Source of the DNA: a bacterium
GTDB lineage: Bacteria; Zhuqueibacterota; Zhuqueibacteria; Oceanimicrobiales; Oceanimicrobiaceae
Length of the DNA: 11,974 bases
Assembly: GCA_046757025.1 (NCBI GenBank)
Contig: JBHHXN010000158.1
Location: 1 to 11,974 of the forward strand
Direction of reading: 5' to 3'
The position numbers and the translations under genes were made by a program. Position 1 is the first letter of the stretch. Every line of letters begins with the position of its first letter. Of the stretch, positions 1-11,974 are shown one piece after another. The notes beneath the pieces are model-generated. The model ran no database searches. It was not told the origin of the DNA and worked only from the letters and a program-made list of their open reading frames with translations.

Positions 1-52
1 TTTAGCCATTTTCTTGTAAAAAAATGCAAAAGTTCAGAAGTAATACTATAAA
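1..52. repeat. Left copy of a 52-bp perfect inverted repeat bounding the window; probable end of an IS or MITE
   Basis: 1..52 (tttagccattttcttgtaaaaaaatgcaaaagttcagaagtaatactataaa) is the exact reverse complement of 11921..11972. Identity stops at 53/11920. The IS origin is inferred; no transposase is in the window. Confidence 0.9.
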
Positions 53-117
53 AAGCATGTTTTAGCTTAACTATTCGTCAACAAATTTTGTTAGGGAACA
101 TACATTAATTTTGGGGA

Positions 118-543
118 TTAATTTTTAGGAAAAAAATCTCGAGATATATCGTGATGCTGACCATTATTTTCTTTAGATATTTCTGCAAAAAGTTCCTCGG
201 CAAGTCGTTCTGCCTTTCTTATAGCCCTCTCCATACTTTTAAATCTATCCATCGGAGAAATTACATTGGCAATATAAAACTCTCCTAACCTTTCTAATTG
301 ATCAACTCGCATGCCTGCAATCGACCGTACCTTTACATCGCCTTTTTTAGGTACAGCAATTTTATTTAACATCCAGGGTGTAATGAGGCTAAAGGTATAA
401 AAATCCTCCGTATCTCGCAGACCTATTACTTTAACAGAAAGGACATTATTTACAACAGGCAGTCCCGAAAAACGAGTTTTGAAAATGTCGATGTACACTT
501 CTTCAAAAATCTTCTTTACTTCTTGAGAACTAGAGAAATTCAT
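118..543 (-). CDS. hybE: [NiFe]-hydrogenase assembly / Tat-proofreading chaperone, HybE/HupJ family
   Basis: LPVVN...ITPWML and SPM motifs typical of the HybE family, ~141 aa, last gene of the hydrogenase cluster. ATG at 543 follows the protease stop; the ORF track uses TTG at 549. Confidence 0.8.
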   Translation of the reverse strand: MNFSSSQEVKKIFEEVYIDIFKTRFSGLPVVNNVLSVKVIGLRDTEDFYTFSLITPWMLNKIAVPKKGDVKVRSIAGMRVDQLERLGEFYIANVISPMDRFKSMERAIRKAERLAEELFAEISKENNGQHHDISRDFFPKN

Positions 544-545
544 GT

Positions 546-1049
546 TCAATTTTCATTTAATGTGTATTGCGATTTTTTTGAGGTTGCCTCGATCCCTAAA
601 GATTTAAGCTCCTTTAATATAAACTCAATCAGTTTTGGAATATGTTCTTGAATTGTAAGCTCGGTGCCATAAGTAGAAATATCTTTCGGTTGAATGCCAA
701 TAATAACTGTTGGCGGTCGCTTCTCCAGTGCCTCAGCAATATTCAGAACATCAATAACATCAATTTCATGTGCAGACAACTTTCGTATGAGTCCAGATGG
801 TAAATCTTCAAATTTAAATTTGACTATTGTGCCGGGTGGCTCACCGATCAAAACGGAATCCACCACAATCAACTGGTCTGTATTTTCAATGATTGCTAGA
901 AGACTCATTCCTCCGGTGCCGCCATCATAGAGCTGTACATTTGGTGGAAATGAGAAATTCTGCTGCAACTCTTCAATAACCCGTACCCCTACTCCCTCGT
1001 CGGTCAAAAGAATATTACCAATGCCTATGATGGTAACCTTTTTCAGCAT
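546..1049 (-). CDS. hybD: Hydrogenase maturation endopeptidase, HyaD/HybD family
   Basis: GIGNILLTDEGVG, DGGTGG, IVVD, SAHE and IGIQP motifs. The adjacent large subunit has a cleavable C-terminal extension. Confidence 0.95.
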   Translation of the reverse strand: MLKKVTIIGIGNILLTDEGVGVRVIEELQQNFSFPPNVQLYDGGTGGMSLLAIIENTDQLIVVDSVLIGEPPGTIVKFKFEDLPSGLIRKLSAHEIDVIDVLNIAEALEKRPPTVIIGIQPKDISTYGTELTIQEHIPKLIEFILKELKSLGIEATSKKSQYTLNEN

Positions 1050-1448
1050 CTTTTTTTTCAGATTTATATGTCTCCTCCCACCCTAATCAAAATCTATCAA
1101 ATTTTCAGGAGCGTTTTGTCAGAAGTTCTACACTAATAGGAGCATTAAGTTTTATTTTAATTACAAATTATTTAGATTTTTCCTCCTCGTTCTATCAGAG
1201 ATTGTCAAAAATCAATAAAGCGGGACTGCCTACGTATATCAGCAAGCGTTCTGAATTTTTACACTAGATATTTGCGAGCCACAATTTGGAAATAATCGCG
1301 CACTTAAAGTGATAATAATCACATCATTCATTTACTCACTTCTATACCCACTACCTTTTCCATAGCTTTCTAACACCGCAGCAGTCCCTTTTGCAGTTCA
1401 ACTTACCATTTTTCATAATATAATAATATTCCCCCACCCTTCTTGGAA

Positions 1449-2120
1449 TTAACGCTCTAACCTGTACCCACTTATAATTGCATTTATGTTGCCCGTTTTG
1501 AATTTAATCGATTTCCAGATTTGAAAGTAAACGTGGATAACAAACCAGACTAAGATTAACCACCACATAATATGATGCGCGCTTCGGACATTTTGAAGTC
1601 CTCCGAACAAGGCCACAATCCAATCCGTCGCAAAATGCAGCAATGCTGGCCACCACCAATTTATAGCATATTGGACAACATAGAGTGCAAAACCAGTGAA
1701 TATTAATAGTATGGCTAAGATGTGAAATGATAAGAAAGAAATTATATCGATTGGATCTTCATATTCATATTTAACATTTTCTCCCGAAAGTTTGAAATAA
1801 TATTTAAGTTGAATCCAGAATTTCTTTAAATTTCTGGGGGTAGGCAAAAGCTCTTTCCAAGGAGCATGGAATGTGGAAAAGAAGATCAGATAGATACTCA
1901 ACAAAATAGCCACATCAAAAACAATGGCAGCAACAAAATGAATAAACCTCATCTGAGCCATGAAAAAAGTTTCTGCGGGTTCTCCATCTGGTGAGATGAA
2001 AGATGGTGTATGAGCAATATAATTTCCTGTGATTAATAAAACAACCACACTGAGAAAGATGGTCCAGTGAATGATTCGCACTGTACCAGACCAGACATAT
2101 TTCATTTTTCTATCCGCCAT
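1449..2120 (-). CDS. cybH: Ni/Fe-hydrogenase b-type cytochrome subunit (HyaC-like, quinone-reactive)
   Basis: Four hydrophobic helices with heme-ligand His residues (RIIHW, RFIHF, RSAHH, VIHVY). Start reassigned to ATG 2120 (MADRKMK), preceded by GGAGG overlapping the true large-subunit stop. Confidence 0.92.
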   Translation of the reverse strand: MADRKMKYVWSGTVRIIHWTIFLSVVVLLITGNYIAHTPSFISPDGEPAETFFMAQMRFIHFVAAIVFDVAILLSIYLIFFSTFHAPWKELLPTPRNLKKFWIQLKYYFKLSGENVKYEYEDPIDIISFLSFHILAILLIFTGFALYVVQYAINWWWPALLHFATDWIVALFGGLQNVRSAHHIMWWLILVWFVIHVYFQIWKSIKFKTGNINAIISGYRLER

Positions 2121-2124
2121 CGTC

Positions 2125-3735
2125 TCACCTCCCGAAAAGCCCTGAACGAGCCCGAAATTTGAGAATTCTATTTGTCTTTGGTTCAATCACGTGAACCCCA
2201 CAGCCCAGTCATGGATCGTAGGAGTGAACGACTCTCAGGATCTCTACAGGCTTTTCGGGATCGGCCACCGGCGTACCAATTAGCGCTTCTTCTACCGGTC
2301 CCCGCACACCTTTATCATCTCTGGGAGAAAAATTCCATGTGGATGGAGAAATCACCTGGTAGTTTTTGAGCTTGCCTTCTTCGATCACATTCCAATGCGC
2401 TAATGCACCTCTTGGCGCTTCCCACAAACCCACACCGCTGCATGAATCTGGAGCTTCAAAGTCAGCATAAAGATTAGTCTGGCCACCTTTGAAGTTTTCG
2501 ACAAGTTCCAGAGTCCAATCGACCATAGCATCAGCAATTATCTTACACTCCAAAGCTCGGGCGCCCACCCGGCCTAAAGTCGACAACAGCACTCCGGGCT
2601 GGTCTGGAACTCCAAGAGTAGCTAAGGTGTCATCGATCAGTTTTTTAGCTTTTTGATTGCCAGAAAGATAAGCAACTAACATCCTCGAGAGAGGTCCTAC
2701 TTCCATAGGCTGATCTTTAAATCGTGGCGCTTTACACCAACTGTATTTGGCATTTGTGTCAAGATCAGAATATCTTGGCTCAGTCACGCCTTCGCTAGGA
2801 TGTAACGGACCAGATTCATCGGTGTACCAGCTATGGCTTATATACTCGGTCACTTCTTCAGGCTTAACCTCTTCAACTTTCAGTTCGCCACCGAAAACTG
2901 CTCCAGGCGGAAACAGTCTTTTTTGTGCATCCCAGCTTTCATCTTCGAATACACCCCAGGCCAGGTAATTTGTATGGCTTTTGCCGATTGCAGCCCAATC
3001 TAAATAATAGCGGGCTACCGCGACCACATCTGGAATATAGACATCATCAACCCAGGTTTTAAGCTCCTTCGCTCTGAAAAGCGCATCACCTAACATCTTT
3101 GCATCCGGGGTAACCGTAACCCCGCCAGGAACACAGGTCATCATGTGCGGAAATTTTCCACCAAAAAGAGCCAACAATTGTGAGGCTTTGGCCTGCATAT
3201 CTAATGCCTCTAAATAATGGGCAACTGCAACTAAATTCAATTCAGAGGGAAGCCTGTAGGCAGGATGACCCCAGTATGCATTGGAAAACGGACCCAGTTG
3301 ACCGCTATCCACAAAGGCTTTGATTTTCGCCTGCACTTTTTTCAGAGAAGCTTCTTTGGGTTTTGCATTCAAAGCGCTGACAATGTCCACATAATCTAAA
3401 GCATGCAGATGATAAAAGGCAAGGATGTGAGAGTGAACATATTGTGCGCCTTCGATAATATTTCGAATAATACGGGCATTATCTGGCGGGGTCACGCCGA
3501 ATGCATCTTCAAGACCGTAGGTCGAGCAATGACCATGAGAGATCGGACAAACGCCACATATTCTCTGAGATAAATAATAAGCATCTTTAGGGTCGCGGCC
3601 TTTTAAGACAATCTCCATGCCTCGAAACAGCGGACTGGTACTCCAGGCGTCCTTAACCTTGCCGCCTTCCACTTCTACTTCGATACGAAGATGTCCTTCC
3701 AGACGAGTGAAAGGATCAATCACCACTCTGGCCAT
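2125..3735 (-). CDS. hysA: [NiFeSe] hydrogenase large subunit (group 1a-like), selenocysteine at TGA 2209..2211, 536 aa
   Basis: TRLEGH, L1 motif QRICGVCPISH, EAPRGALAHW. Readthrough of the TGA gives L2 motif YDP-U-LGCGVH plus the 21-aa extension VIEPKTNRILKFRARSGLFGR and a stop at 2125..2127. SD GGAGG lies upstream of ATG 3735. Confidence 0.95.
2173..2202 (-). promoter_or_regulatory. Bacterial SECIS-like hairpin
   Basis: Upper stem GGUUCA/UGAACC (2180..2197) starts 11 nt after the UGA, with loop CGUGAU (GU at loop positions 2-3) and a possible lower UGU/ACA stem. Confidence 0.8.
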
Positions 3736-3737
3736 AA

Positions 3738-4892
3738 TTATTCACCTCCTTCCGCATTCTTGTCAGGTTTAGATGTTTTCGGTTTTTCTTCCACTTCCTC
3801 TACTTCTGAGTTCTGGTCAGCTTTTTTTCGAGATGTCCAAATCGCATGAGCGGCGATCCCGCCGGCGGCCGCGCCTACCAGGGTAAAACCAATTCGGTCC
3901 GCCGTTCTTTCAACACCGCCAAAACCGGGAATCTTGACGCCGGGACGGCGAGTGAAAAATGGCGAGCCGTTATCTGCCCATTTCTGCTGGGCACAGCCAA
4001 TGCAAGGCGAGCCAGCACCGATACACCAATTCGCTTTGTTGTTCCAACGGTCCAGCGAGCAGGAAGAATAGGTTTCCGGGCCTTTGCAGCCCATCTTATA
4101 GAGACAATACTGCTTTTTAGCCTCTTCGCTGCCAAATTCCTCAACAAATTCGCCGGCATCAAAATGAGCCCGGCGCTCACAGATATCGTGAATTCTCAGC
4201 CCATACAAGAATTTAGGCCGACCCTTGTTATCCAATTCAGGCAATCTGCCCAAAAGAAGGTAATTCACGACCGTCGCCGTAATCCACTTCGGATGCACCG
4301 GACAACACGGCAGGTTAACGAACTTTTTAGCGCCCATTTGAGTGGCTTGCTGGGTACCGGTTGCTCCTGTCGGATTGGGATTGCAGCCCACCCAGCCGCC
4401 ATCAAAGGAACAACTGCCAACATTAATTACAGCAGCCGCATCGGCACACACTTCTTTAGCAATTTCTACCCCAGTTTTACCGCCTATTCGCATGAAATTA
4501 CCATCTGCTCCAGTCAAACTTGCCCCTTCAACAGCCACCAAATACTTTCCTTTATATTTCTCCATTGTGGCATTTCGAGCTTCTTCTGCCTGCTTTCCTG
4601 CAGCAGCCATAATGGTCTCATGGTAATCAACGGATAAGATATCGAGAATAACTTCATCTGCTGTGGGATAATATCCTTGAATAAAGGATTCGGTGCAACC
4701 TGTACACGAGGCAAAATGGAGCCAAATTAAAGGCGGACGGGACTTGGCTTTCTCAATAGCATTGGCGATTTCTGGAACAAAGACCTTACTCAACCCCAAC
4801 ATCGCCGCAACAGAACCGCAATACTTGAGAAAGTCTCTTCGAGACAGCTCGTCTTGAAAAATTCTCAAGGCGATTTTTTGCGCATTCGTCAT
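3738..4892 (-). CDS. hysB: [NiFeSe] hydrogenase small subunit, Tat-exported with C-terminal membrane anchor
   Basis: Tat motif SRRDFLK; SCTGCTES, GSC, CP, HDICERR, CLYKMGCKGP and NWCIGAGSPCIGC cluster motifs; hydrophobic tail IGFTLVGAAAGGIAAHAIW. Start likely ATG 4892 with AGGA upstream (ORF track uses TTG 4910). Confidence 0.93.
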   Translation of the reverse strand: MTNAQKIALRIFQDELSRRDFLKYCGSVAAMLGLSKVFVPEIANAIEKAKSRPPLIWLHFASCTGCTESFIQGYYPTADEVILDILSVDYHETIMAAAGKQAEEARNATMEKYKGKYLVAVEGASLTGADGNFMRIGGKTGVEIAKEVCADAAAVINVGSCSFDGGWVGCNPNPTGATGTQQATQMGAKKFVNLPCCPVHPKWITATVVNYLLLGRLPELDNKGRPKFLYGLRIHDICERRAHFDAGEFVEEFGSEEAKKQYCLYKMGCKGPETYSSCSLDRWNNKANWCIGAGSPCIGCAQQKWADNGSPFFTRRPGVKIPGFGGVERTADRIGFTLVGAAAGGIAAHAIWTSRKKADQNSEVEEVEEKPKTSKPDKNAEGGE

Positions 4893-4905
4893 GACAATCC
4901 TGATT

Positions 4906-4943
4906 TTCAAACCTAAACGAAACTGGAATCGTTTAGGTTTGAA
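4906..4943. repeat. Perfect 15-bp inverted repeat just upstream of the small-subunit RBS
   Basis: ttcaaacctaaacga (4906..4920), 8-nt loop, tcgtttaggtttgaa (4929..4943). Confidence 0.85.
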
Positions 4944-5201
4944 GGACGCCTTTCTTCGTCCATTAAATGTTTCTCTAATGATGGAAGAACAGAGATGTCC
5001 ATCAGTTATTTTATACGCCCTTCATAAAACGTTCAATCTTCACTCATATTCAAATTTTGAGACAAGGATAATATTGCCAGAGCTCAAGGCAGCAGACTTA
5101 ACGCCTCCTTTCATTAGTGATAGTGTCAGTTTATTATTTTACAGAATTGTTTAATCGGATGTGGTTGGACAATCTGGTGTCCTTGCTGTATTTTTTACTT
5201 A

Positions 5202-5334
5202 GTGATTGACCGAAAACTCGATACCGATCATCATGATTATAATTAAAATAGGGAGTCGGTGTGCTCTACGTTATTGTTTTTCCGACAGCAGAGGACGCCC
5301 GTCGGTGCGGATAGTGTAGTTTTCGGTCCATCAC
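5202..5334. mobile_element. Putative 133-bp MITE with 17-bp TIRs and 6-bp target-site duplication
   Basis: gtgattgaccgaaaact (5202..5218) and agttttcggtccatcac (5318..5334) are a 16/17 inverted match. They are flanked directly by tactta at 5196..5201 and 5335..5340. Confidence 0.6.
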
Positions 5335-5390
5335 TACTTATTTGCCAGGTACGCCCATTCTTCCTGACCAAATAACTTTAGGACTCTTTA

Positions 5391-5406
5391 TGCAATCATT
5401 ATACCA
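5391..5406 (-). promoter_or_regulatory. Sigma54 (-24/-12) promoter of the hydrogenase operon
   Basis: Minus strand TGGTAT-AATGA-TTGCA, GG-N10-GC spacing, correct orientation. Predicted +1 near 5380. Confidence 0.75.
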
Positions 5407-5437
5407 GCATAATTGTCAAAACGCCTTTATCCAGGGA

Positions 5438-5450
5438 TTAATTATTGATT
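5438..5450 (-). promoter_or_regulatory. IHF-like site upstream of the sigma54 promoter
   Basis: Minus strand AATCAATAATTAA, one mismatch to WATCAANNNNTTR. The same 10-mer occurs at a similar offset in the second promoter. Confidence 0.45.
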
Positions 5451-5641
5451 TGTAAGTAGTTAGTACAGTTTAGACTCGACGATGGGCATCGATTCGTCCT
5501 AGATTGAAAGCGGAAGGTGTGTCACAAATGTCATATAGAATACTGGTGTAATTCTGACTTAAAGGATTTGTTTTTTTAAATATACGTAAAGTGGGACATA
5601 TAAATCATTGATGTGACACGAGTGTCTCTATTAAATAAAAA

Positions 5642-6847
5642 TCATGGACGTTCAAATTCTACGCGGGCCTCATCCCAGGGCGGCATTATCGCGAACAACA
5701 CGTACAAAATGAGCAGGGGCAAAATCAACAGGCCAATGGAGACAAGTAAACCTTCCAGACCCAAAAAGGACATTTTATAAGTGGTCAAGCCGCTGAAACT
5801 CTTGGAAAAGAGCTGGCCGCCGATCACCACGTTCCAACGGGTAGAAAAAATACCCACCTGCACCAGCAAAGCCGACACAAAATACAGCAGTTTTTTCAAT
5901 TCGTCCGGAGTTTTGAAGAGCTTTACGGCTGCGATGGCGCCAAGGGGTATCAGCATTCCCATGAGTAATTGGATGACCACCAGACTGACAAACAATTTGC
6001 CTGACACCAACTGCGCCAGAATTTTGATGGACTCTTCTGACTCATAAATGCGGTGAATAAAATCGAGAATTTCTAACGAAAAATCAACGATCATGGCGTA
6101 AAAAAGATAACTGGCCAATTTGTCCAGACATTTCATATCCACCATTTTCGAGCGCATGGGGGTGACGATCATGTAGATGAGCAGAACCAGCGCAATGCCC
6201 GAGACGATGGCCGAGAACAAAAACACGATGGGCATGAGCACGCTCGACCACCAGGGATTCGCCTTCACCGAACCAAAAATAAATCCCACATACCCGTGCA
6301 GCAAAAACGCCGAAGGGATGCCGATGATGGTGACGGTTTTTACGGCTTTTTTGTCGAACCGCAGGGCTTTTTCCGAGAGGTCCGATGAAAACAAAGACAA
6401 AAGTTTGTGCAGCCATTTTCGCAGGCCTTTTTCTTGCGAGGCCCAGATAATGAGATCTTTTCTGTAATCAAACCAGATTTCCAGCAGCAGCACGGCCATC
6501 AGATACCAGGCGTAAACAAAGCCAAACATGGCCATGGCCGAGCTGGTGTTGGGAGTGAGAAAAATCTCAAATGACTTTTCCGGATGCCCCAGGTGGGCCA
6601 ACAGAGGCAACGGCGCCACCAGTAAAAACGCCAGCGCTGTCAGCAACGACATGCGGTAAGTGGGCTGCATTTCTTTGACGTTGAAGACTTTCACCAGAGA
6701 GGCCAGAATGAAAGCGCCAGCGACCAAACCGGTGACGTACGGATAGATCACCACCAGCAGCCCCCAGTGCAGTTCAATTTCGTTGGGATAAATATAACCC
6801 GAAATTTCTTTCAGTAGCGGAGTGAGATGATTTACGATTTCTTCCAA
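5642..6847 (-). CDS. nrfD: NrfD/PsrC-family integral membrane quinol-interacting subunit
   Basis: WGLLVVIYPYVTGLVAGAF, HLGHP, TSSAM, ANPWWSS, FLFSAIVSG and RWNVVIGGQ motifs; roughly 8-10 hydrophobic helices; TTG start after GGAGG. Family-level call only. Confidence 0.9.
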   Translation of the reverse strand: MEEIVNHLTPLLKEISGYIYPNEIELHWGLLVVIYPYVTGLVAGAFILASLVKVFNVKEMQPTYRMSLLTALAFLLVAPLPLLAHLGHPEKSFEIFLTPNTSSAMAMFGFVYAWYLMAVLLLEIWFDYRKDLIIWASQEKGLRKWLHKLLSLFSSDLSEKALRFDKKAVKTVTIIGIPSAFLLHGYVGFIFGSVKANPWWSSVLMPIVFLFSAIVSGIALVLLIYMIVTPMRSKMVDMKCLDKLASYLFYAMIVDFSLEILDFIHRIYESEESIKILAQLVSGKLFVSLVVIQLLMGMLIPLGAIAAVKLFKTPDELKKLLYFVSALLVQVGIFSTRWNVVIGGQLFSKSFSGLTTYKMSFLGLEGLLVSIGLLILPLLILYVLFAIMPPWDEARVEFERP

Positions 6848-6849
6848 GG

Positions 6850-7647
6850 TTATTTTACCTCCATATCAAGGTTTGCATAAAAAACTTTTGGTTCGGTATT
6901 TAAGAACGGTTTCAAAACGCGAATCTTGTTCATACGCATGAACCGCACCAGTGGACTGGCCTTTTTCTCGACTTCACCAAAAATTCGCGCCTGCGTGGGG
7001 CAGACCTCTACACACGCCGGCACCAATCCCTGCACAATGCGGTGATAACAGAAGGTACATTTTTCAGCGGTGCGTGTCTCCGGATCGAGAAAGCGAGCGC
7101 CGTAAGGACAGGCCTGAATACAGTATCGACAGCCGATGCAGTAATTCTCATCCACCAGCACCACGCCATCGGCATTGATGAAAGTGGCGCCAACGGGACA
7201 AACCTGCACACAGGGCGGATTTTCACACTGGTTGCAGATCTTCGGCACAAAAAAGCTGCGGATGATGTTTTTAGCCAGGGGTTCATATTTAAAGCTGTTT
7301 ATGGCGGCCTCGGGGCTGTCGATGAGAACTTCGCCATCGGCGAGGATGCGGTAGCGCTCCACCCAGGTACGCGTGAAAAAAGGCACACGCGGAACGTTGT
7401 TTTCTCTTTTGCAGGCATCCACACAGCGGCCGCAGCCAATGCATTTGCTGATATCGATGCCCATGCCCCACTTATGATCAGAGGGTCGGTAACCGTCGCC
7501 GAGGATCCAATCCAGCACTTTTTTATGTTTTTCTTCTCCGATCAGAAAACTCGGAATAATTAACGTGATGAACGAACCGAATATTTTTTTGAGAAAATGT
7601 CTTCTGTTGTGATTTGGTTTTTCCATTTTTTCTTGCATCCTTTTCAT
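6850..7647 (-). CDS. NrfC/PsrB/DmsB-family 4x[4Fe-4S] electron-transfer protein with Tat signal
   Basis: CIGCGRCVDAC, CNQCENPPCVQVCP, CIGCRYCIQACP and CTFC...PACVEVCP motifs; NRRHFLK Tat-like motif. Start set at ATG 7647 (TGATG overlap with the upstream stop); downstream ATGs are possible. Confidence 0.93.
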   Translation of the reverse strand: MKRMQEKMEKPNHNRRHFLKKIFGSFITLIIPSFLIGEEKHKKVLDWILGDGYRPSDHKWGMGIDISKCIGCGRCVDACKRENNVPRVPFFTRTWVERYRILADGEVLIDSPEAAINSFKYEPLAKNIIRSFFVPKICNQCENPPCVQVCPVGATFINADGVVLVDENYCIGCRYCIQACPYGARFLDPETRTAEKCTFCYHRIVQGLVPACVEVCPTQARIFGEVEKKASPLVRFMRMNKIRVLKPFLNTEPKVFYANLDMEVK

Positions 7648-8432
7648 CAATTGGCCTCCGGTAGATGAGGATAATGACATTGCCAACAAACGTATCTTTC
7701 GCCGTGGATAGCGATATCCACCTGAGGTATGCCTTTGGTTTCTGGCGTTTCTTGAGCATGGCATCCGCCGCAAAATTCCCGCGTCTGCGGTTTGTTCGGT
7801 AAAAATTGCCGCGGACTAATTTTGTGGTTTTCCGGCGTCTCATGACATCTGATGCACTCTACATAAGCATGATGCGAAATGGTTTTCGTACGGGCAATAT
7901 TGGCATGGCATGCAGAGCATTCCTTGGGCGTCTCCGGCGGCTTCGGATCATGCGGTTCGTGACAGGTAATGCACGGTTTAATAGGATTGTGCGAGGCTGA
8001 AACAATTTGAGGAAAACCCGTTGGACGGGAGGGCAGATATTCATGGCATAAAGGACAATAGCCCCGGCCACGAGGAATTTGCAGCATGCCCGGTTCTGGT
8101 TCCTCGGTGTGTTTGGCCGCCGGCCCATGGCAGACTTCACAAGCCAAAGATTTATGATAACCGGCGTTTTTAACCTCCATCAGGTCGTCATGGCATTCGG
8201 CACAAATCTCATGACCAGCGTAATTGATTTCTTGAGAAACGATCTCTTCCACGGCCGAAGCGCGAAAGTGCCCATATTTGCCAAAATCGGACGGCACGAG
8301 CGTTACTCGCACCGCCACCAGTAACACGATGACCACCAACAACAAAATGGACAGTCTTTTAATCTGCTCGGGAAAGCGTTTCCAGAGCTGCCAAAGGGCA
8401 TTCAATAAGCGATCGGGCTCAAAATTGTTCAT
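7647..8432 (-). CDS. Membrane-anchored octaheme cytochrome c
   Basis: Eight CxxCH motifs (CAECH, CEVCH, CPLCH, CITCH, CSACH, CIRCH, CGGCH, CWQCH), N-terminal hydrophobic helix, AGGA upstream of the ATG. Confidence 0.93.
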   Translation of the reverse strand: MNNFEPDRLLNALWQLWKRFPEQIKRLSILLLVVIVLLVAVRVTLVPSDFGKYGHFRASAVEEIVSQEINYAGHEICAECHDDLMEVKNAGYHKSLACEVCHGPAAKHTEEPEPGMLQIPRGRGYCPLCHEYLPSRPTGFPQIVSASHNPIKPCITCHEPHDPKPPETPKECSACHANIARTKTISHHAYVECIRCHETPENHKISPRQFLPNKPQTREFCGGCHAQETPETKGIPQVDIAIHGERYVCWQCHYPHLPEAN

Positions 8433-8550
8433 GTTTTCCTGTTCTTAGTAGATTCACCTAATTTAAGCCAAACTAAGGATTTACGATTATTGGTGAAAAG
8501 CAACCATTTTTCCTGTACCAGCAAGCCAAATTTATAATTGTGGACACACA

Positions 8551-8566
8551 AGCAATCTTTATACCA
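8551..8566 (-). promoter_or_regulatory. Sigma54 (-24/-12) promoter of the cytochrome c/FeS/NrfD operon
   Basis: Minus strand TGGTAT-AAAGA-TTGCT, 14/16 identical to the promoter at 5391..5406. Confidence 0.75.
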
Positions 8567-8933
8567 CGATTGTTAGAGCCAGCTATTTTCATCCCTTAAT
8601 TATTGTTTTTTTTCTATTTAAACCCTATTAATTTTCAATAAATGAATGTGAGTTTATCCATTTTGAAACATAACTGGGACAGGCTTATCACACCGATTTT
8701 TTCATAAAAACTTCTATATTTTAGTTAATTTTAAATTTACGGCAAACGTATCCCACGATTCTCACTGTAGCTTGATTGTCTCATTTTACCGAGACCCGTT
8801 TGATCACTTGTTTGAGATATTAATTGAAATTGGATGGGCAGCCCGTTTTCGTTGGCTGCTTCGACAGGTTGCGATGCTCGTGAACAATCCCGTGCTGTCG
8901 GTATCCCGGCTCGGCATTTTGGGGACGTCCCGA

Positions 8934-11798
8934 TTAATGTGGCGGACTATCCACTCCCGAATAATCCGCTGCCGGTTTCCAGATCAGCCAGTCGATCAAT
9001 CCCTTAAAACGTTGATTGTTGCTGGCGCCCGGCATATCATTGTGATTGGCATTGTCGCCGATATAGCTCAACTTGTTTTCAGCAAGGATCTCATCCCCCG
9101 GCTGTGACATCCATTTACACCCGCCGCTATCTTCTGGATTTGGCTTGGCGATATTGATAAATCCTGACCAGTTCTCGCCGGCGCCGTTGCCGTTGGCGCC
9201 CTGATGGTCTGCCCAGATGTCGATGGGAATGTTTGATTTGTTAGAATTAAACACCACTCTGATTTTGTACCAGTGACCAGCTACACTCGGATACAAGTCT
9301 ATATCGGAAGAAACCTGCTTCCACCAGGCGCCAGCGCCTTCAGCGCCGCAATCCCGTCGATATTGTGAAGGCACCCGGTACTTCACCATAACCCGCGCTT
9401 TACCCGCGCGCGATTCAACATAATCGCCAGCCCAGCTACCACGCATGATGGTAAACTGAAGGGTTTTCTGTCTTTCAAATATTCTCTGCTGGGTGCTGTT
9501 TCGACCGCCGGGCAGCACGGTGAAGGGATCCTTATCAAAATCGAAATCATCGTCAATCCCATTGCCGTCTGCATCCAAATAGTCCAGATCCACCACTTCG
9601 GGTTTGATTCTCGCTTCCAGGGTGATTTCACGCAGATAGCCGGTATAACCGATGGAAAGCAGACAGCCTGCACTGTTGGTCAATTCCACATACGCATCCA
9701 TATTCTCATTACCGTGGAAATAGCCGTCGCCAGGAATAGCATACGATGGATTCGAAACCGTGCCGGCGAGCACACCCTGGTCGTCGTAAACCGTGCTGCT
9801 GCCCGCAGGTTCATTGAACTGGAAACTTACGGTGCCGATGGGGCACACGGTGCCGCTCAGAGCGATCTTATCGGTTTGCAAGGGAATGCCGACATTATCG
9901 AAAATTTGGGCGGCAGCAGCAGCCAGCTCGTCCACGCCGATATCATTTTGAGATATCCAGCGGTGAGCTCAAAGATACACGGGCGGTGCTGGCGCCGGCG
10001 GTGTGGTCCACACTGACGATCGTTCGGTGGTTGTCATCATCAATAAATTGCAAATCGGCCGGGGTAAGTTGGCCCGTTAGATCGGCATGGGAGTAAACCG
10101 CTTCAGAGAAAGTCACCTCCAGAATGTGGCTGCCCGCCGCACCTTCGACTTCCACTATTTCTGGAACGCCGGCGGGCGTCCAGAGATATTTGGTGTAGCT
10201 GTGAGTAACATGAATGATGCGATGAACGGAGTTGGCTTCGTGACAGGACGCGCTGCCGCAGCTCATGCCCGCGTGATGCCCGCCATAGTAATAGTGGCAG
10301 TTGTTACACATGGTGTTCCAGATGCTGGTTGAGGTATGGCAATTATAACAAAACTCGACCAGTGAGTCGGCCGAATCGGCATTAAGTAACTTGATGTTTT
10401 CTGAACCGTGTCCGGTGGCGTGACAGCCGAAACTTTCGCCGTCCCCCATACAGGTGAGGGGCGTGCCATAGTCGCCGCCTGTTTTATGTGCGGCCACGTT
10501 CCAGAGGTTTTCACGGACGTACGGCGGCGTTCTGCCGGCGGAAAACGGCGTATCGCCATCGCCGTCATGGCAATTCAAACAAAACGGAACCAGTTTTGCC
10601 GCCTCTGTGGGGTCTGTCATCGGCCGGTTTATCAGCTCGTAAACAACCGCACGATCATCCGCATCCAGTAGCCTGACCCGTCCCTGCGAATGTTTGGTCA
10701 TATCATGACAAACGCGACAGTCGGTTTTTTCCAGCTCGGCGCCGTGCAGTTCAGGCCCGGATTGTGCGGGTGGTAGCCTGAGCTGTTATTGCGATGATAA
10801 GCGGTAGCCGTGTGGCAAACCTCGCACACGCCATCGTAATTCGAATCTCTGTCGGCAAAAGAATGCTCTCCCGATTCTGCGGTAAATACCACCGAGCGAT
10901 CGCCGCTGTTTGGAGTGGAGATGGTAGGTTTGACCAAAAACAGGTTGTTTCGGGATGGATCGTGTGGAGAAGGGCATTTATGGCAGCCCTGGTTCTGATG
11001 CGCCTGGTAGGTGTGGCAAGATTGGCACAAATCGTCCTCGTTTTTGGCGCGCAAGATGTAGCCGTCTCCGGCGCCGCTATTGGCCCCGCCGGAATCGGCA
11101 TAATGCGGACTGTGACAGCTCGTGCATTCCACGCGATTCGGATGGATCAACAGAATATCGGGATTTTGTGGAGCGCGGTAGAATCGATTGTCGTTCGTCG
11201 GGTAAACGATGCCATCGGGATGGCTGCCCTTGTTATCCGGATGGGTACGGTAGCTGCCGACATTGCGCACGGCATGACCATCCTTGCACATGGCATTTTG
11301 AAAATTCGACGCGCGTAAAAATGGTGAAAACGTCTGATCATGCTGGTTGTGACAGGTTGAACAGACGACTTTGTTATCGAAAATTCGACGCGCCATTTCA
11401 GGATTGGATGGGGTTTGCGCGCCTTGGGTTGGGTTGTTTGCCAGCACATTCCAGGCGTGAGAAATGCCGGTAATCCCGGCTTGCGCTCAGTAAGCATCGG
11501 CAAACGGTTTGCTGCTGGCCAAACCCGCCGGGTTGTGGCAGCTCATACACAGATTGGCGTTCCCCTCCACCATGGTCAACTGCACATCCGCACTTTGATG
11601 GGTCATGTGGCAGGAGCTGCAATTGATGCCAAAACGGGTGTGCGGAGCATCGATGGATTTCAGGGAAGCTTGCGCATCTTTCCCCGTTGACGCCGGCAAC
11701 GGGACTTTGGTCTGTCCAATCAAGTGAACCGGAAGCACACTTAAAAAAATAACCAACCAACATCTGACAAACCGCCATTCGAAAACAACACCAATCAT
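8934..11798 (-). pseudogene. Disrupted large secreted multiheme cytochrome c with Ig-like and LamG/concanavalin-like C-terminal regions
   Basis: Four ORF-track pieces join into one gene. SD GGAGG and a signal peptide at 11798, in-frame TGA at 11487..11489, frame change near 10745, +1 frameshift in the T4 run at 9946..9949. Ten intact CxxCH, two damaged (CKDGH, CHKCP), one truncated, plus CX8CH and CX4CH. Confidence 0.85.
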
Positions 11799-11920
11799 CT
11801 ACTTCCTCCCGTCACCTGAACGCGAATTTAAAGGTCTGTAGAATTCTCGAAAGGGTGAGTCAATAAGGCATCCCGGTTTCAGCTCAATTGGCGTAATTTC
11901 ACATTCTGATGACTTGTTGC

Positions 11921-11972
11921 TTTATAGTATTACTTCTGAACTTTTGCATTTTTTTACAAGAAAATGGCTAAA
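11921..11972. repeat. Right copy of the 52-bp inverted repeat
   Basis: Exact reverse complement of 1..52. Confidence 0.9.
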
Positions 11973-11974
11973 TG

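Follow-up and report, generated by a model that had tools for sequence, protein, structure and literature searches.

Two Respiratory Modules, One with a Likely [NiFeSe] Hydrogenase, beside a Broken Multiheme Cytochrome Gene on a Zhuqueibacterota Contig

The stretch of DNA analysed here (the window, 11,974 bp) is the whole of contig C158 (JBHHXN010000158.1) of a Zhuqueibacterota genome (GCA_046757025.1, hereafter G000; 5.96 Mb, 374 contigs, 95% complete), and it carries three blocks of genes, namely a hydrogenase operon, a trio for an octaheme cytochrome c, an iron-sulfur (FeS) protein, and an NrfD-family membrane subunit, and a gene for a large multiheme cytochrome (Table 1). We put the probability at roughly 0.55 that the first two blocks are intact, separately promoted respiratory modules, likely coupled via the menaquinone pool, and that the broken multiheme cytochrome is likely off the path, the exit for electrons being encoded elsewhere. 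An earlier reading of the same DNA (the original prediction) took the three blocks for one island encoding a whole conduit from H2 through quinone and octaheme to a surface cytochrome. The third cytochrome gene is broken, and in the relatives examined it is not linked to the other blocks, so the window does not by itself encode a complete wire to the outside. Its putative surface cytochrome is dead and the likely exit lies elsewhere, which corrects the single-island claim and leaves known kinds of module in a new combination, plus an overlooked selenoenzyme. Window DNA is contained in four sequencing runs of one hydrothermal vent metagenome study, three of which may be its source.

In the route that we favour, a [NiFeSe] hydrogenase, exported by twin-arginine translocation (Tat) and anchored in the membrane, would oxidise H2 at the outer face of the membrane and pass electrons via cytochrome b to menaquinone. 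The NrfD subunit would then oxidise menaquinol with release of protons outside, giving a redox loop, and four [4Fe-4S] clusters would relay the electrons onward to the octaheme, whose predicted docking site is the one taken by the molybdopterin subunit in Psr/Nar-type enzymes. The octaheme, presumably with bis-His ligation throughout, would pass them to periplasmic cytochromes, and exit to a solid or a partner cell, if used, would most likely be through porin-cytochrome-type clusters on contigs C94, C12, and C52 of G000. The roles of HyaC-type and NrfD/PsrC-type subunits underlie the steps of quinone reduction and quinol oxidation. The part of the original prediction that runs from H2 via quinone to the octaheme finds some support, since menaquinone genes are present (menB and menD above cut-off in G000; the futalosine-pathway MqnC was not found there) and adjacency of a hydrogenase to the trio recurs, but the window multiheme, broken and unlinked, drops out as its final step.

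The Octaheme-FeS-NrfD Trio

The trio is widespread, being found in at least 589 stretches from species genomes, and trio locus counts out of 80 refer to the best 80 of these 589. The FeS gene accompanied NrfD at 80/80 loci and the octaheme gene at 75/80 (74/74 where there was room for it). In 53 aligned octahemes, eight CXXCH motifs and eight further His are all invariant, which would fit eight bis-His haems and no catalytic haem. Profile searches of the window proteins found no molybdopterin subunit or other catalytic subunit, just as the original prediction had stated. Its likening of the trio to Cbc-type quinol:cytochrome c oxidoreductases is supported by the constancy and ligation of the octaheme and its predicted contact with the FeS protein, in the form of a putative Cbc4/NrfCD-like quinol:cytochrome c module without a catalytic subunit, which is a known kind.

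The structure model of the octaheme has an N-terminal anchor (predicted local distance difference test score, pLDDT, 85). A fold search with it gave no PDB match over the full length and none at E<=0.001, only a 37-residue match to NrfH, and the NrfD profile gave no PDB sequence match. Prediction of the octaheme-FeS complex, a check proposed with the original prediction, scored 0.89 against 0.35 for the best of three controls, with at least 97% of contacts agreeing between runs and a partner pLDDT of at least 78; the mark used is passed by 116/157 solved pairs and 2/215 mismatched pairs. The predicted contacts on the FeS protein (residues 66-73 and 200-218) ring its first Cys group, which we take to be the side contacting the catalytic subunit in enzymes of the Psr/Nar kind.

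The genes neighbouring the trio vary among 85 loci, with a nonaheme cytochrome at 27, cytochrome b at 25, a Rieske protein at 21, 11-haem/cytochrome b561 at 21, a NapC-like protein at 18, and a molybdopterin protein, of the alternative complex III (ACIII)-like type, at 7. Homologues of the usual neighbours in G000 are located on C12. Trio orthologues occur in Melioribacteraceae and Deferrimicrobiaceae records. In run X4, positions 5897-5942 of the NrfD gene hold a dense tract of mostly third-position changes, resembling a recombined segment under purifying selection.

A Likely Selenocysteine-Containing Hydrogenase

The original prediction left out an in-frame TGA in the large-subunit gene, and we correct the end of the subunit from 2209 to 2125. 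Read as selenocysteine (Sec), the TGA gives the C-terminus DP-TGA-LGCGVH and sits at the C-terminal nickel ligand, aligned to Cys in homologues. Cys occupies the ligand position in 95 of the 120 homologues listed, while 22 of the best 23 (74-100% identity) terminate at DP, and databases store the large subunits of this Sec clade as truncated proteins of 508-509 aa. TGA was found at the nickel-ligand position in 4/70 readable hydrogenase loci and, in a separate locus set, in 5/5. A 6-bp hairpin lies 14 nt downstream of the TGA; its pairs are kept (6/6) in 4/4 other TGA loci and in 0/65 Cys loci, and the G of its loop is not discriminating, being found in 64/65 Cys loci too. The Rfam scan of the window returned 0 matches. 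G000 encodes tRNA-Sec, selA, selB, and selD (selB and selD by motif and open reading frame, ORF, inspection). Judging from the codon and its setting, the enzyme is likely a [NiFeSe] hydrogenase.

The large subunit scored 456 bits against the HysA model NF045518 (cut-off 780), and, among Desulfovibrio structure chains, 563 bits to [NiFe] and 357 to [NiFeSe]. Trees were made with FastTree (82 rows) and IQ-TREE LG+G4 (32 of those rows); both are unrooted, use no mixture model, and hold a single HysA row (P0178, 835 bits to the HysA model). The Sec clade (support 100/100) is nested among Cys-type Nitrospirota/Desulfobulbaceae enzymes, with a Coriobacteriaceae protein (one row, on a long branch) as its sister (98/96), and Cys-type sister enzymes stand at 60-66% identity. 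One clade of these enzymes with HysA was rejected (approximately unbiased test, p 2.5e-11, with one HysA row under LG+G4). The enzyme thus likely represents a cytochrome b-linked group 1 [NiFeSe] lineage outside HysA with group 1i-like neighbours. A second DP-ending, likely Sec-containing, large-subunit pair (P0138 and P0149) is close to, and outside, the window's clade, and given this pair Sec may be ancestral to a wider clade. Repeated gain of Sec in place of Cys is described for group 4 hydrogenases in the accessible part of one report (PMC13582414).

The Sec-type hydrogenase was found in 5/351 genomes searched of another phylum (that of G180), and searches of 86 genomes from the phylum of G179 and of 50 trio genomes did not find it. 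The Sec-type motif gave 0 hits in viral contigs, and a HysA reference search in five deltaproteobacterial genomes gave none above cut-off. In the five operons from the phylum of G180 (L305-L309) cytochrome b is encoded twice in tandem, the two copies being 47-55% and 69-70% identical to that of the window, and there is no HybE match. The small subunit of the window has an additional Cys beside a proximal-cluster ligand (PCCP), common to relative G013 and not to G021. The paper on Zhuqueibacterota reports hydrogenase groups 1d and 3b-3d, and the accessible main text has no match to "selen" (PMC11683472). The likely Sec enzyme and its Cys-type sisters lend themselves to a comparison that would show the role of selenium in an uptake hydrogenase of the membrane.

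Linkage of the Hydrogenase and the Trio

The window-type hydrogenase occurs in 3/167 genomes of the phylum. Fifteen other genomes of the phylum have the trio, eight of them with a group 1 hydrogenase, which in two (G067 and G165) lies directly upstream of the trio and co-oriented with it. On contig C75 of G067, HydS, HydL, cytochrome b, octaheme, FeS, and NrfD follow in one run with a 113-bp gap, and on C52 of G165 the order is hydrogenase operon, hypA, hypB, and trio. The enzyme adjoining the trio in both is a different, Cys-type one (CTTVH). A hydrogenase large subunit was found in 1/80 trio loci, and at locus L072 hydrogenase and trio are convergent. The five Sec-type genomes of the other phylum include two with the trio, and on contig C7 of one of these two (G232) Sec-type hydrogenase and trio stand 29 kb apart, at opposite ends of one multiheme supercluster. 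An exact contig size and source is shared with one of 119 octahemes by 2/22 Sec-type proteins and 0/96 Cys-type ones (jitter null 5e-5), which may point to a shared contig. The adjacency in G067 and G165, with these matches, overturned the reading that linkage of hydrogenase and trio never occurs; the two are paired repeatedly, in a minority of genomes, without the pairing being obligatory. G000 itself retains a broken cytochrome b gene and the protease gene of a CTTVH-type hydrogenase, which stand at the end of C12.

It is unlikely, if far from absurd, that shuffling in a genome rich in repeats merely brought hydrogenase and trio together and that the quinone pool is all that connects them. 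Each of the blocks also occurs by itself in other gene settings, a gap of 731 bp separates the two, a dispersed repeat stands at both window ends, and the trio's usual partners (Rieske/cytochrome b and nonaheme) sit on C12. Yet adjacency in 3/16 trio genomes of the phylum, involving two hydrogenases that are not orthologous and in one case a gap of 113 bp, should be far above random placement in genomes of 4-6 Mb, and the hydrogenase-octaheme matches in contig size and source add two more assemblies.

Several points weigh against the reading of two coupled modules. The closest relatives with the same hydrogenase (G013 and G021) have no trio orthologue, and NrfD or octaheme was found in 0/82 hydrogenase loci from metagenomes and genomes (30 with at least 5 kb upstream). 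Hydrogenase and trio are apart in 6/8 phylum genomes with both, and no group 1 hydrogenase was found in 7/15 trio genomes. The sigma-54 box of the trio, described below, is not kept upstream of orthologues (2/72 octaheme loci). The octaheme-FeS score may owe something to likeness to solved FeS-cytochrome complexes, and sequence alone does not fix the direction of electron flow.

The modules look like mix-and-match cassettes, since the neighbours of the trio are, depending on the genome, Rieske/cytochrome b, NapC-like, ACIII-like, or hydrogenase genes. We raise, as a tentative idea with the odds against it, that there is an undescribed hydrogenase-octaheme/FeS/NrfD unit, put together more than once, and with different hydrogenases, among KSB1-like, Calditrichota, and Fidelibacterota bacteria, which would form a redox loop driven by H2 and supply electrons for extracellular transfer; the window's hydrogenase would come from a membrane-bound group 1 [NiFeSe] lineage in which Sec arose apart from HysA. 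A literature search covering mostly open-access main texts found nothing on hydrogenase-trio operons, on this octaheme family, or on Sec in this hydrogenase clade, and the accessible passages of one preprint (10.64898/2026.05.27.727921) mention no NrfD, octaheme, or Cbc. The recurrent placement of a widespread, unstudied quinol:octaheme module beside uptake hydrogenases would give the module a concrete donor.

Other Electron-Transfer Genes of the Host

G000 has several possible exits because it encodes 37 ORFs with at least three haem motifs, NapA, and ACIII and Qrc/ACIII-like clusters. One cluster on C94 (L164) holds NHL propellers, a peptidylprolyl isomerase (PPIase), tetrahemes, a nonaheme, a beta-barrel, and an intact 21-haem paralogue, and adjoins a sigma-54 two-component system and IS21-like genes. 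A 656-aa ORF of this contig has the predicted fold of a large outer-membrane-type beta-barrel (pLDDT 66, four alignment rows). A respiratory supercluster of ~54 kb on C12 (12700-66454) contains 16 multiheme ORFs, two Rieske/cytochrome b sets, a Qrc/ACIII-like module, NapA, HAO-like octahemes, barrels, and multihemes tagged for the type IX secretion system (T9SS), whose sorting domains are present in G000. The original prediction had proposed looking for porin-cytochrome genes elsewhere, and the C94 cluster with its predicted barrel supplies candidates. The window locus itself is no porin-cytochrome conduit, with a broken multiheme and, by ORFs and profile searches, no porin or outer-membrane beta-barrel gene; the barrel candidates are on C94 and C12. 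Contig C130 (L151:4430-6407) carries an HmcB/HybA-like FeS gene and an HmcC/HybB-like NrfD gene next to hypABFC, and no gene for a hydrogenase large subunit is close by.

There is a slim chance that the trio feeds periplasmic terminal reductases (NapA, HAO-like octahemes) and not an extracellular acceptor, as NrfCD/SirCD do. NapA is above cut-off in G000, which also has three HAO/HDH-like octahemes, and SirCD substitutes for CymA with several soluble acceptors according to the available portion of one article (PMC11434368). NapA, however, has its own NapGH-like genes on C12 (ORF inspection), NrfA was not found in G000, the rare molybdopterin proteins near trio loci are ACIII-like, and the many multiheme ORFs together with the beta-barrels favour extracellular transfer.

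The Broken Multiheme Cytochrome

The original prediction described the distal multiheme as decayed, and comparison with P0003, a homologue that is intact and has 18 haem motifs in 1285 aa, agrees. The window copy retains 11 haem motifs, two having been lost by point change. It has a nonsense TGA at 11487-11489 where P0003 carries Arg, a frameshift with a deletion of ~46 codons near 10745, and a further frameshift at 9946, and it lacks a block of ~285 residues that is absent from G000 and carried by 21/26 long homologues. All four runs (three of them possible sources, as said) show the TGA and the 10745 lesion, and assembly error was rejected as their explanation; X2 and X4 lack the 9946 frameshift, differing there by 1 bp. 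The pseudogene is still polymorphic between runs, X3 having a stop codon change and a 3-bp insertion (8936, 9435). Reading TGA 11487 as a Sec codon was rejected too, because it aligns to Arg amid other lesions. The "large secreted multiheme" of the original prediction does have a Sec-type (general secretory) signal peptide, which is the evidence for its export, but only as a pseudogene copy in the window. The C-terminal region of 9/26 homologues has LamG-like Pfam matches, and no intact copy with a matching C-terminal domain was found in G000.

The multiheme family was next to the trio in 0/80 loci (0/61 with room) and next to the hydrogenase in 0/82, so that the synteny check in relatives upheld in part the hydrogenase-trio link (2/8 other phylum genomes) and not that of the multiheme to either. 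The family occurs in 9 and the trio in 16 of the 167 phylum genomes. In the three relatives inspected (G012, G027, and G052) it adjoins a cluster of NHL-propeller, PPIase, tetraheme, and barrel genes. We consider that the multiheme gene is likely not part of the electron path.

Two sigma-54-type boxes (TGGTAT-N5-TTGC, consensus match only) are present, one in the gap before the trio and one in that before the hydrogenase (2 found vs 0.10 expected; 2/200 shuffles), and the C94 and C12 clusters also have such boxes upstream, beside sigma-54 activators. This suggests separate promoters under one regulatory style. Sigma-70 and terminator scans of the window were at chance level.

That the three blocks are one island for the complete conduit, the final component of which has decayed in this strain, is very improbable and already largely refuted by synteny. 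The blocks are indeed co-oriented and really linked, two of them have similar boxes, hydrogenase-trio adjacency recurs in other genomes, and trio and multiheme family co-occur in four other genomes of the phylum, but in these they are on separate contigs or 67 kb apart, the family's normal setting is a porin-cytochrome-type cluster, the boxes give two blocks each their own, all three blocks occur together in only 1/167 phylum genomes (G000), and the window has no porin, integrase, transposase, or tRNA.

Direction of Electron Flow

NrfD-family modules run in either direction, as QrcABCD illustrates, whereas H2 evolution from menaquinol is uphill and hydrogenases with HyaC-type cytochrome b work in uptake. 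Inward flow, with a Qrc-like trio reducing menaquinone from periplasmic cytochromes and a Se-hydrogenase that may evolve H2, is therefore hardly to be expected: Sec favours proton reduction, in the accessible text of one report (PMC13582414), but the QrcD and QrcC models were far below cut-off or unmatched in the window.

Gene Layout and Assembly

As the original prediction had noted, the blocks are co-oriented; every gene is on the minus strand, and in the order of transcription the multiheme comes first, then the trio, and the hydrogenase last. The gaps are 501 bp between multiheme and octaheme, 731 bp between NrfD and the small subunit ORF, and 399 bp between cytochrome b and protease. The linkage of the blocks is not a mis-assembly, because a single public contig of run X3 (which may be the window's source) covers positions 2182-11949. 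Read depth is lower across 200-2200 in three runs.

Both ends of the window are assembly breaks and not demonstrated island borders, because they carry a dispersed repeat that occurs genome-wide, which ruled out the terminal repeat as an island boundary. It has sharp ends (TATAG...CTAGG) and no obvious terminal inverted repeat, is behind many contig breaks in G000, and is also found just upstream of the broken cytochrome b gene at the end of C12. Nothing marks the window as a genomic island or composite transposon: it has no integrase, transposase, or tRNA target, and the repeat that flanks it is not restricted to it; the true flanks lie beyond the contig ends. A sequence of 23-28 bp at 5195-5222 recurs in at least 13 other places in G000, including upstream of the C12 Rieske gene. 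Named records with close homologues are from KSB1, Calditrichota, Fidelibacterota, Bacteroidota, and Ignavibacteria; with the T9SS-type sorting domains of G000, they suggest that the host is a diderm of the FCB group.

Table 1. Features of the window, with positions, strand, and basis of assignment (TM, transmembrane; MITE, miniature inverted-repeat transposable element; SECIS, selenocysteine insertion sequence).
Feature	Position	Strand	Basis or remark
Dispersed repeat end, ~236-bp, non-coding, MITE-like	1..53		Breaks assembly; 22 near-full copies, 38 matches at contig ends
HybE-type hydrogenase chaperone	118..549	-	PF11939
HyaD/HybD hydrogenase maturation protease	546..1049	-	TIGR00140 above cut-off
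Hydrogenase cytochrome b subunit, 4 predicted TM helices, start likely ATG 2120	1449..2120	-	TIGR02125 above cut-off
Group 1 hydrogenase large subunit, 536 aa with likely Sec (DP-U-LGCGVH), L1 motif QRICGVCPISH	2125..3735	-	NF033181 622 bits, cut-off 600
In-frame TGA (2211-2209) and SECIS-like hairpin (2197-2180)	2180..2211	-	Pairing comparison across loci
Hydrogenase small subunit, Tat signal, C-terminal membrane anchor	3738..4892	-	TIGR00391, TIGR01409
Sigma-54-type -24/-12 box upstream of hydrogenase operon	5391..5406	-	Consensus match only
NrfD/PsrC-family membrane subunit	5642..6847	-	PF03916; identity 65-85% in 52 aligned orthologues
Tat-type 4x[4Fe-4S] subunit, NrfC/PsrB-like	6850..7647	-	Four Cys groups; profile matches
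Membrane-anchored octaheme cytochrome c	7647..8432	-	8 CXXCH and 8 invariant distal His
Sigma-54-type -24/-12 box upstream of trio	8551..8566	-	Consensus match only
Pseudogene of large exported multiheme cytochrome	8934..11798	-	Against intact homologue P0003
Dispersed repeat, identical end, inverted	11921..11974		Repeat comparison

Comparison with Known Systems

The hydrogenase shares with HysAB (group 1a; PDB 1CC1, 2WPN) the position of its likely Sec at the C-terminal nickel ligand (DP-U-xxC) and the CGVCP L1 motif, and differs in its membrane anchor and cytochrome b, its score below the HysA cut-off, and its separate clade. The accessible text of the HydDB paper lists, in Table 1, [NiFeSe] variants within group 1 for 1a only (PMC5037454). 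The operon order of small subunit, large subunit, cytochrome b, and protease is that of group 1i (Coriobacteriia-type) enzymes as given in the available part of one study (PMC9686372), and Sec together with a cytochrome b layout is described, in the portion seen of another, for three-gene [NiFeSe] clusters of Firmicutes such as Syntrophaceticus (PMC5113046). Unlike these, the host is neither an actinomycete nor a firmicute, and the nearest neighbours of its enzyme are Cys-type enzymes of Nitrospirota/Desulfobulbaceae.

The nearest counterpart of the trio is Cbc4 (CbcSTU) of Geobacter sulfurreducens, a proposed menaquinol:cytochrome c oxidoreductase (10.1101/2025.04.14.648717; PMC11434368). In the accessible descriptions it likewise has a membrane-anchored bis-His c-type cytochrome, a 4x[4Fe-4S] protein, and a membrane subunit, in that order and with no catalytic subunit, whereas CbcS has four haems and a core like that of CymA/NrfH, and the window protein is an octaheme; the likeness to CbcT/CbcU is one of gene content. 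NrfCD with a multiheme has been proposed to feed periplasmic cytochromes for Fe(III) reduction in Melioribacter roseus (Mros1571-1572) and in the MBNT15 genome SHF-111 (PMC3534657; PMC9386147), where, in the passages available, a multiheme similarly replaces the molybdopterin subunit beside FeS and NrfD; those passages do not tie the modules to a hydrogenase operon, and their function is predicted too. The trio differs from NrfABCD in that NrfA (PF02335) was not found in the 95% complete G000 and the NrfD/NrfC equivalog cut-offs are missed (TIGR03148, 54.5 vs 347.6; TIGR03149, 152 vs 378), and from complex iron-sulfur molybdoenzymes of the Psr/Ttr type in that its operon has no molybdopterin catalytic subunit. 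The setting of the pseudogene's intact relatives (NHL propeller, PPIase, multihemes, and beta-barrel) resembles an operon of SEEP-SRB1/Desulfuromonadales with beta-propeller, PPIase, and 16- and 26-haem cytochromes, as presented in the accessible text of PMC5539420; the likeness is one of gene content, and the window copy differs in being isolated and broken.

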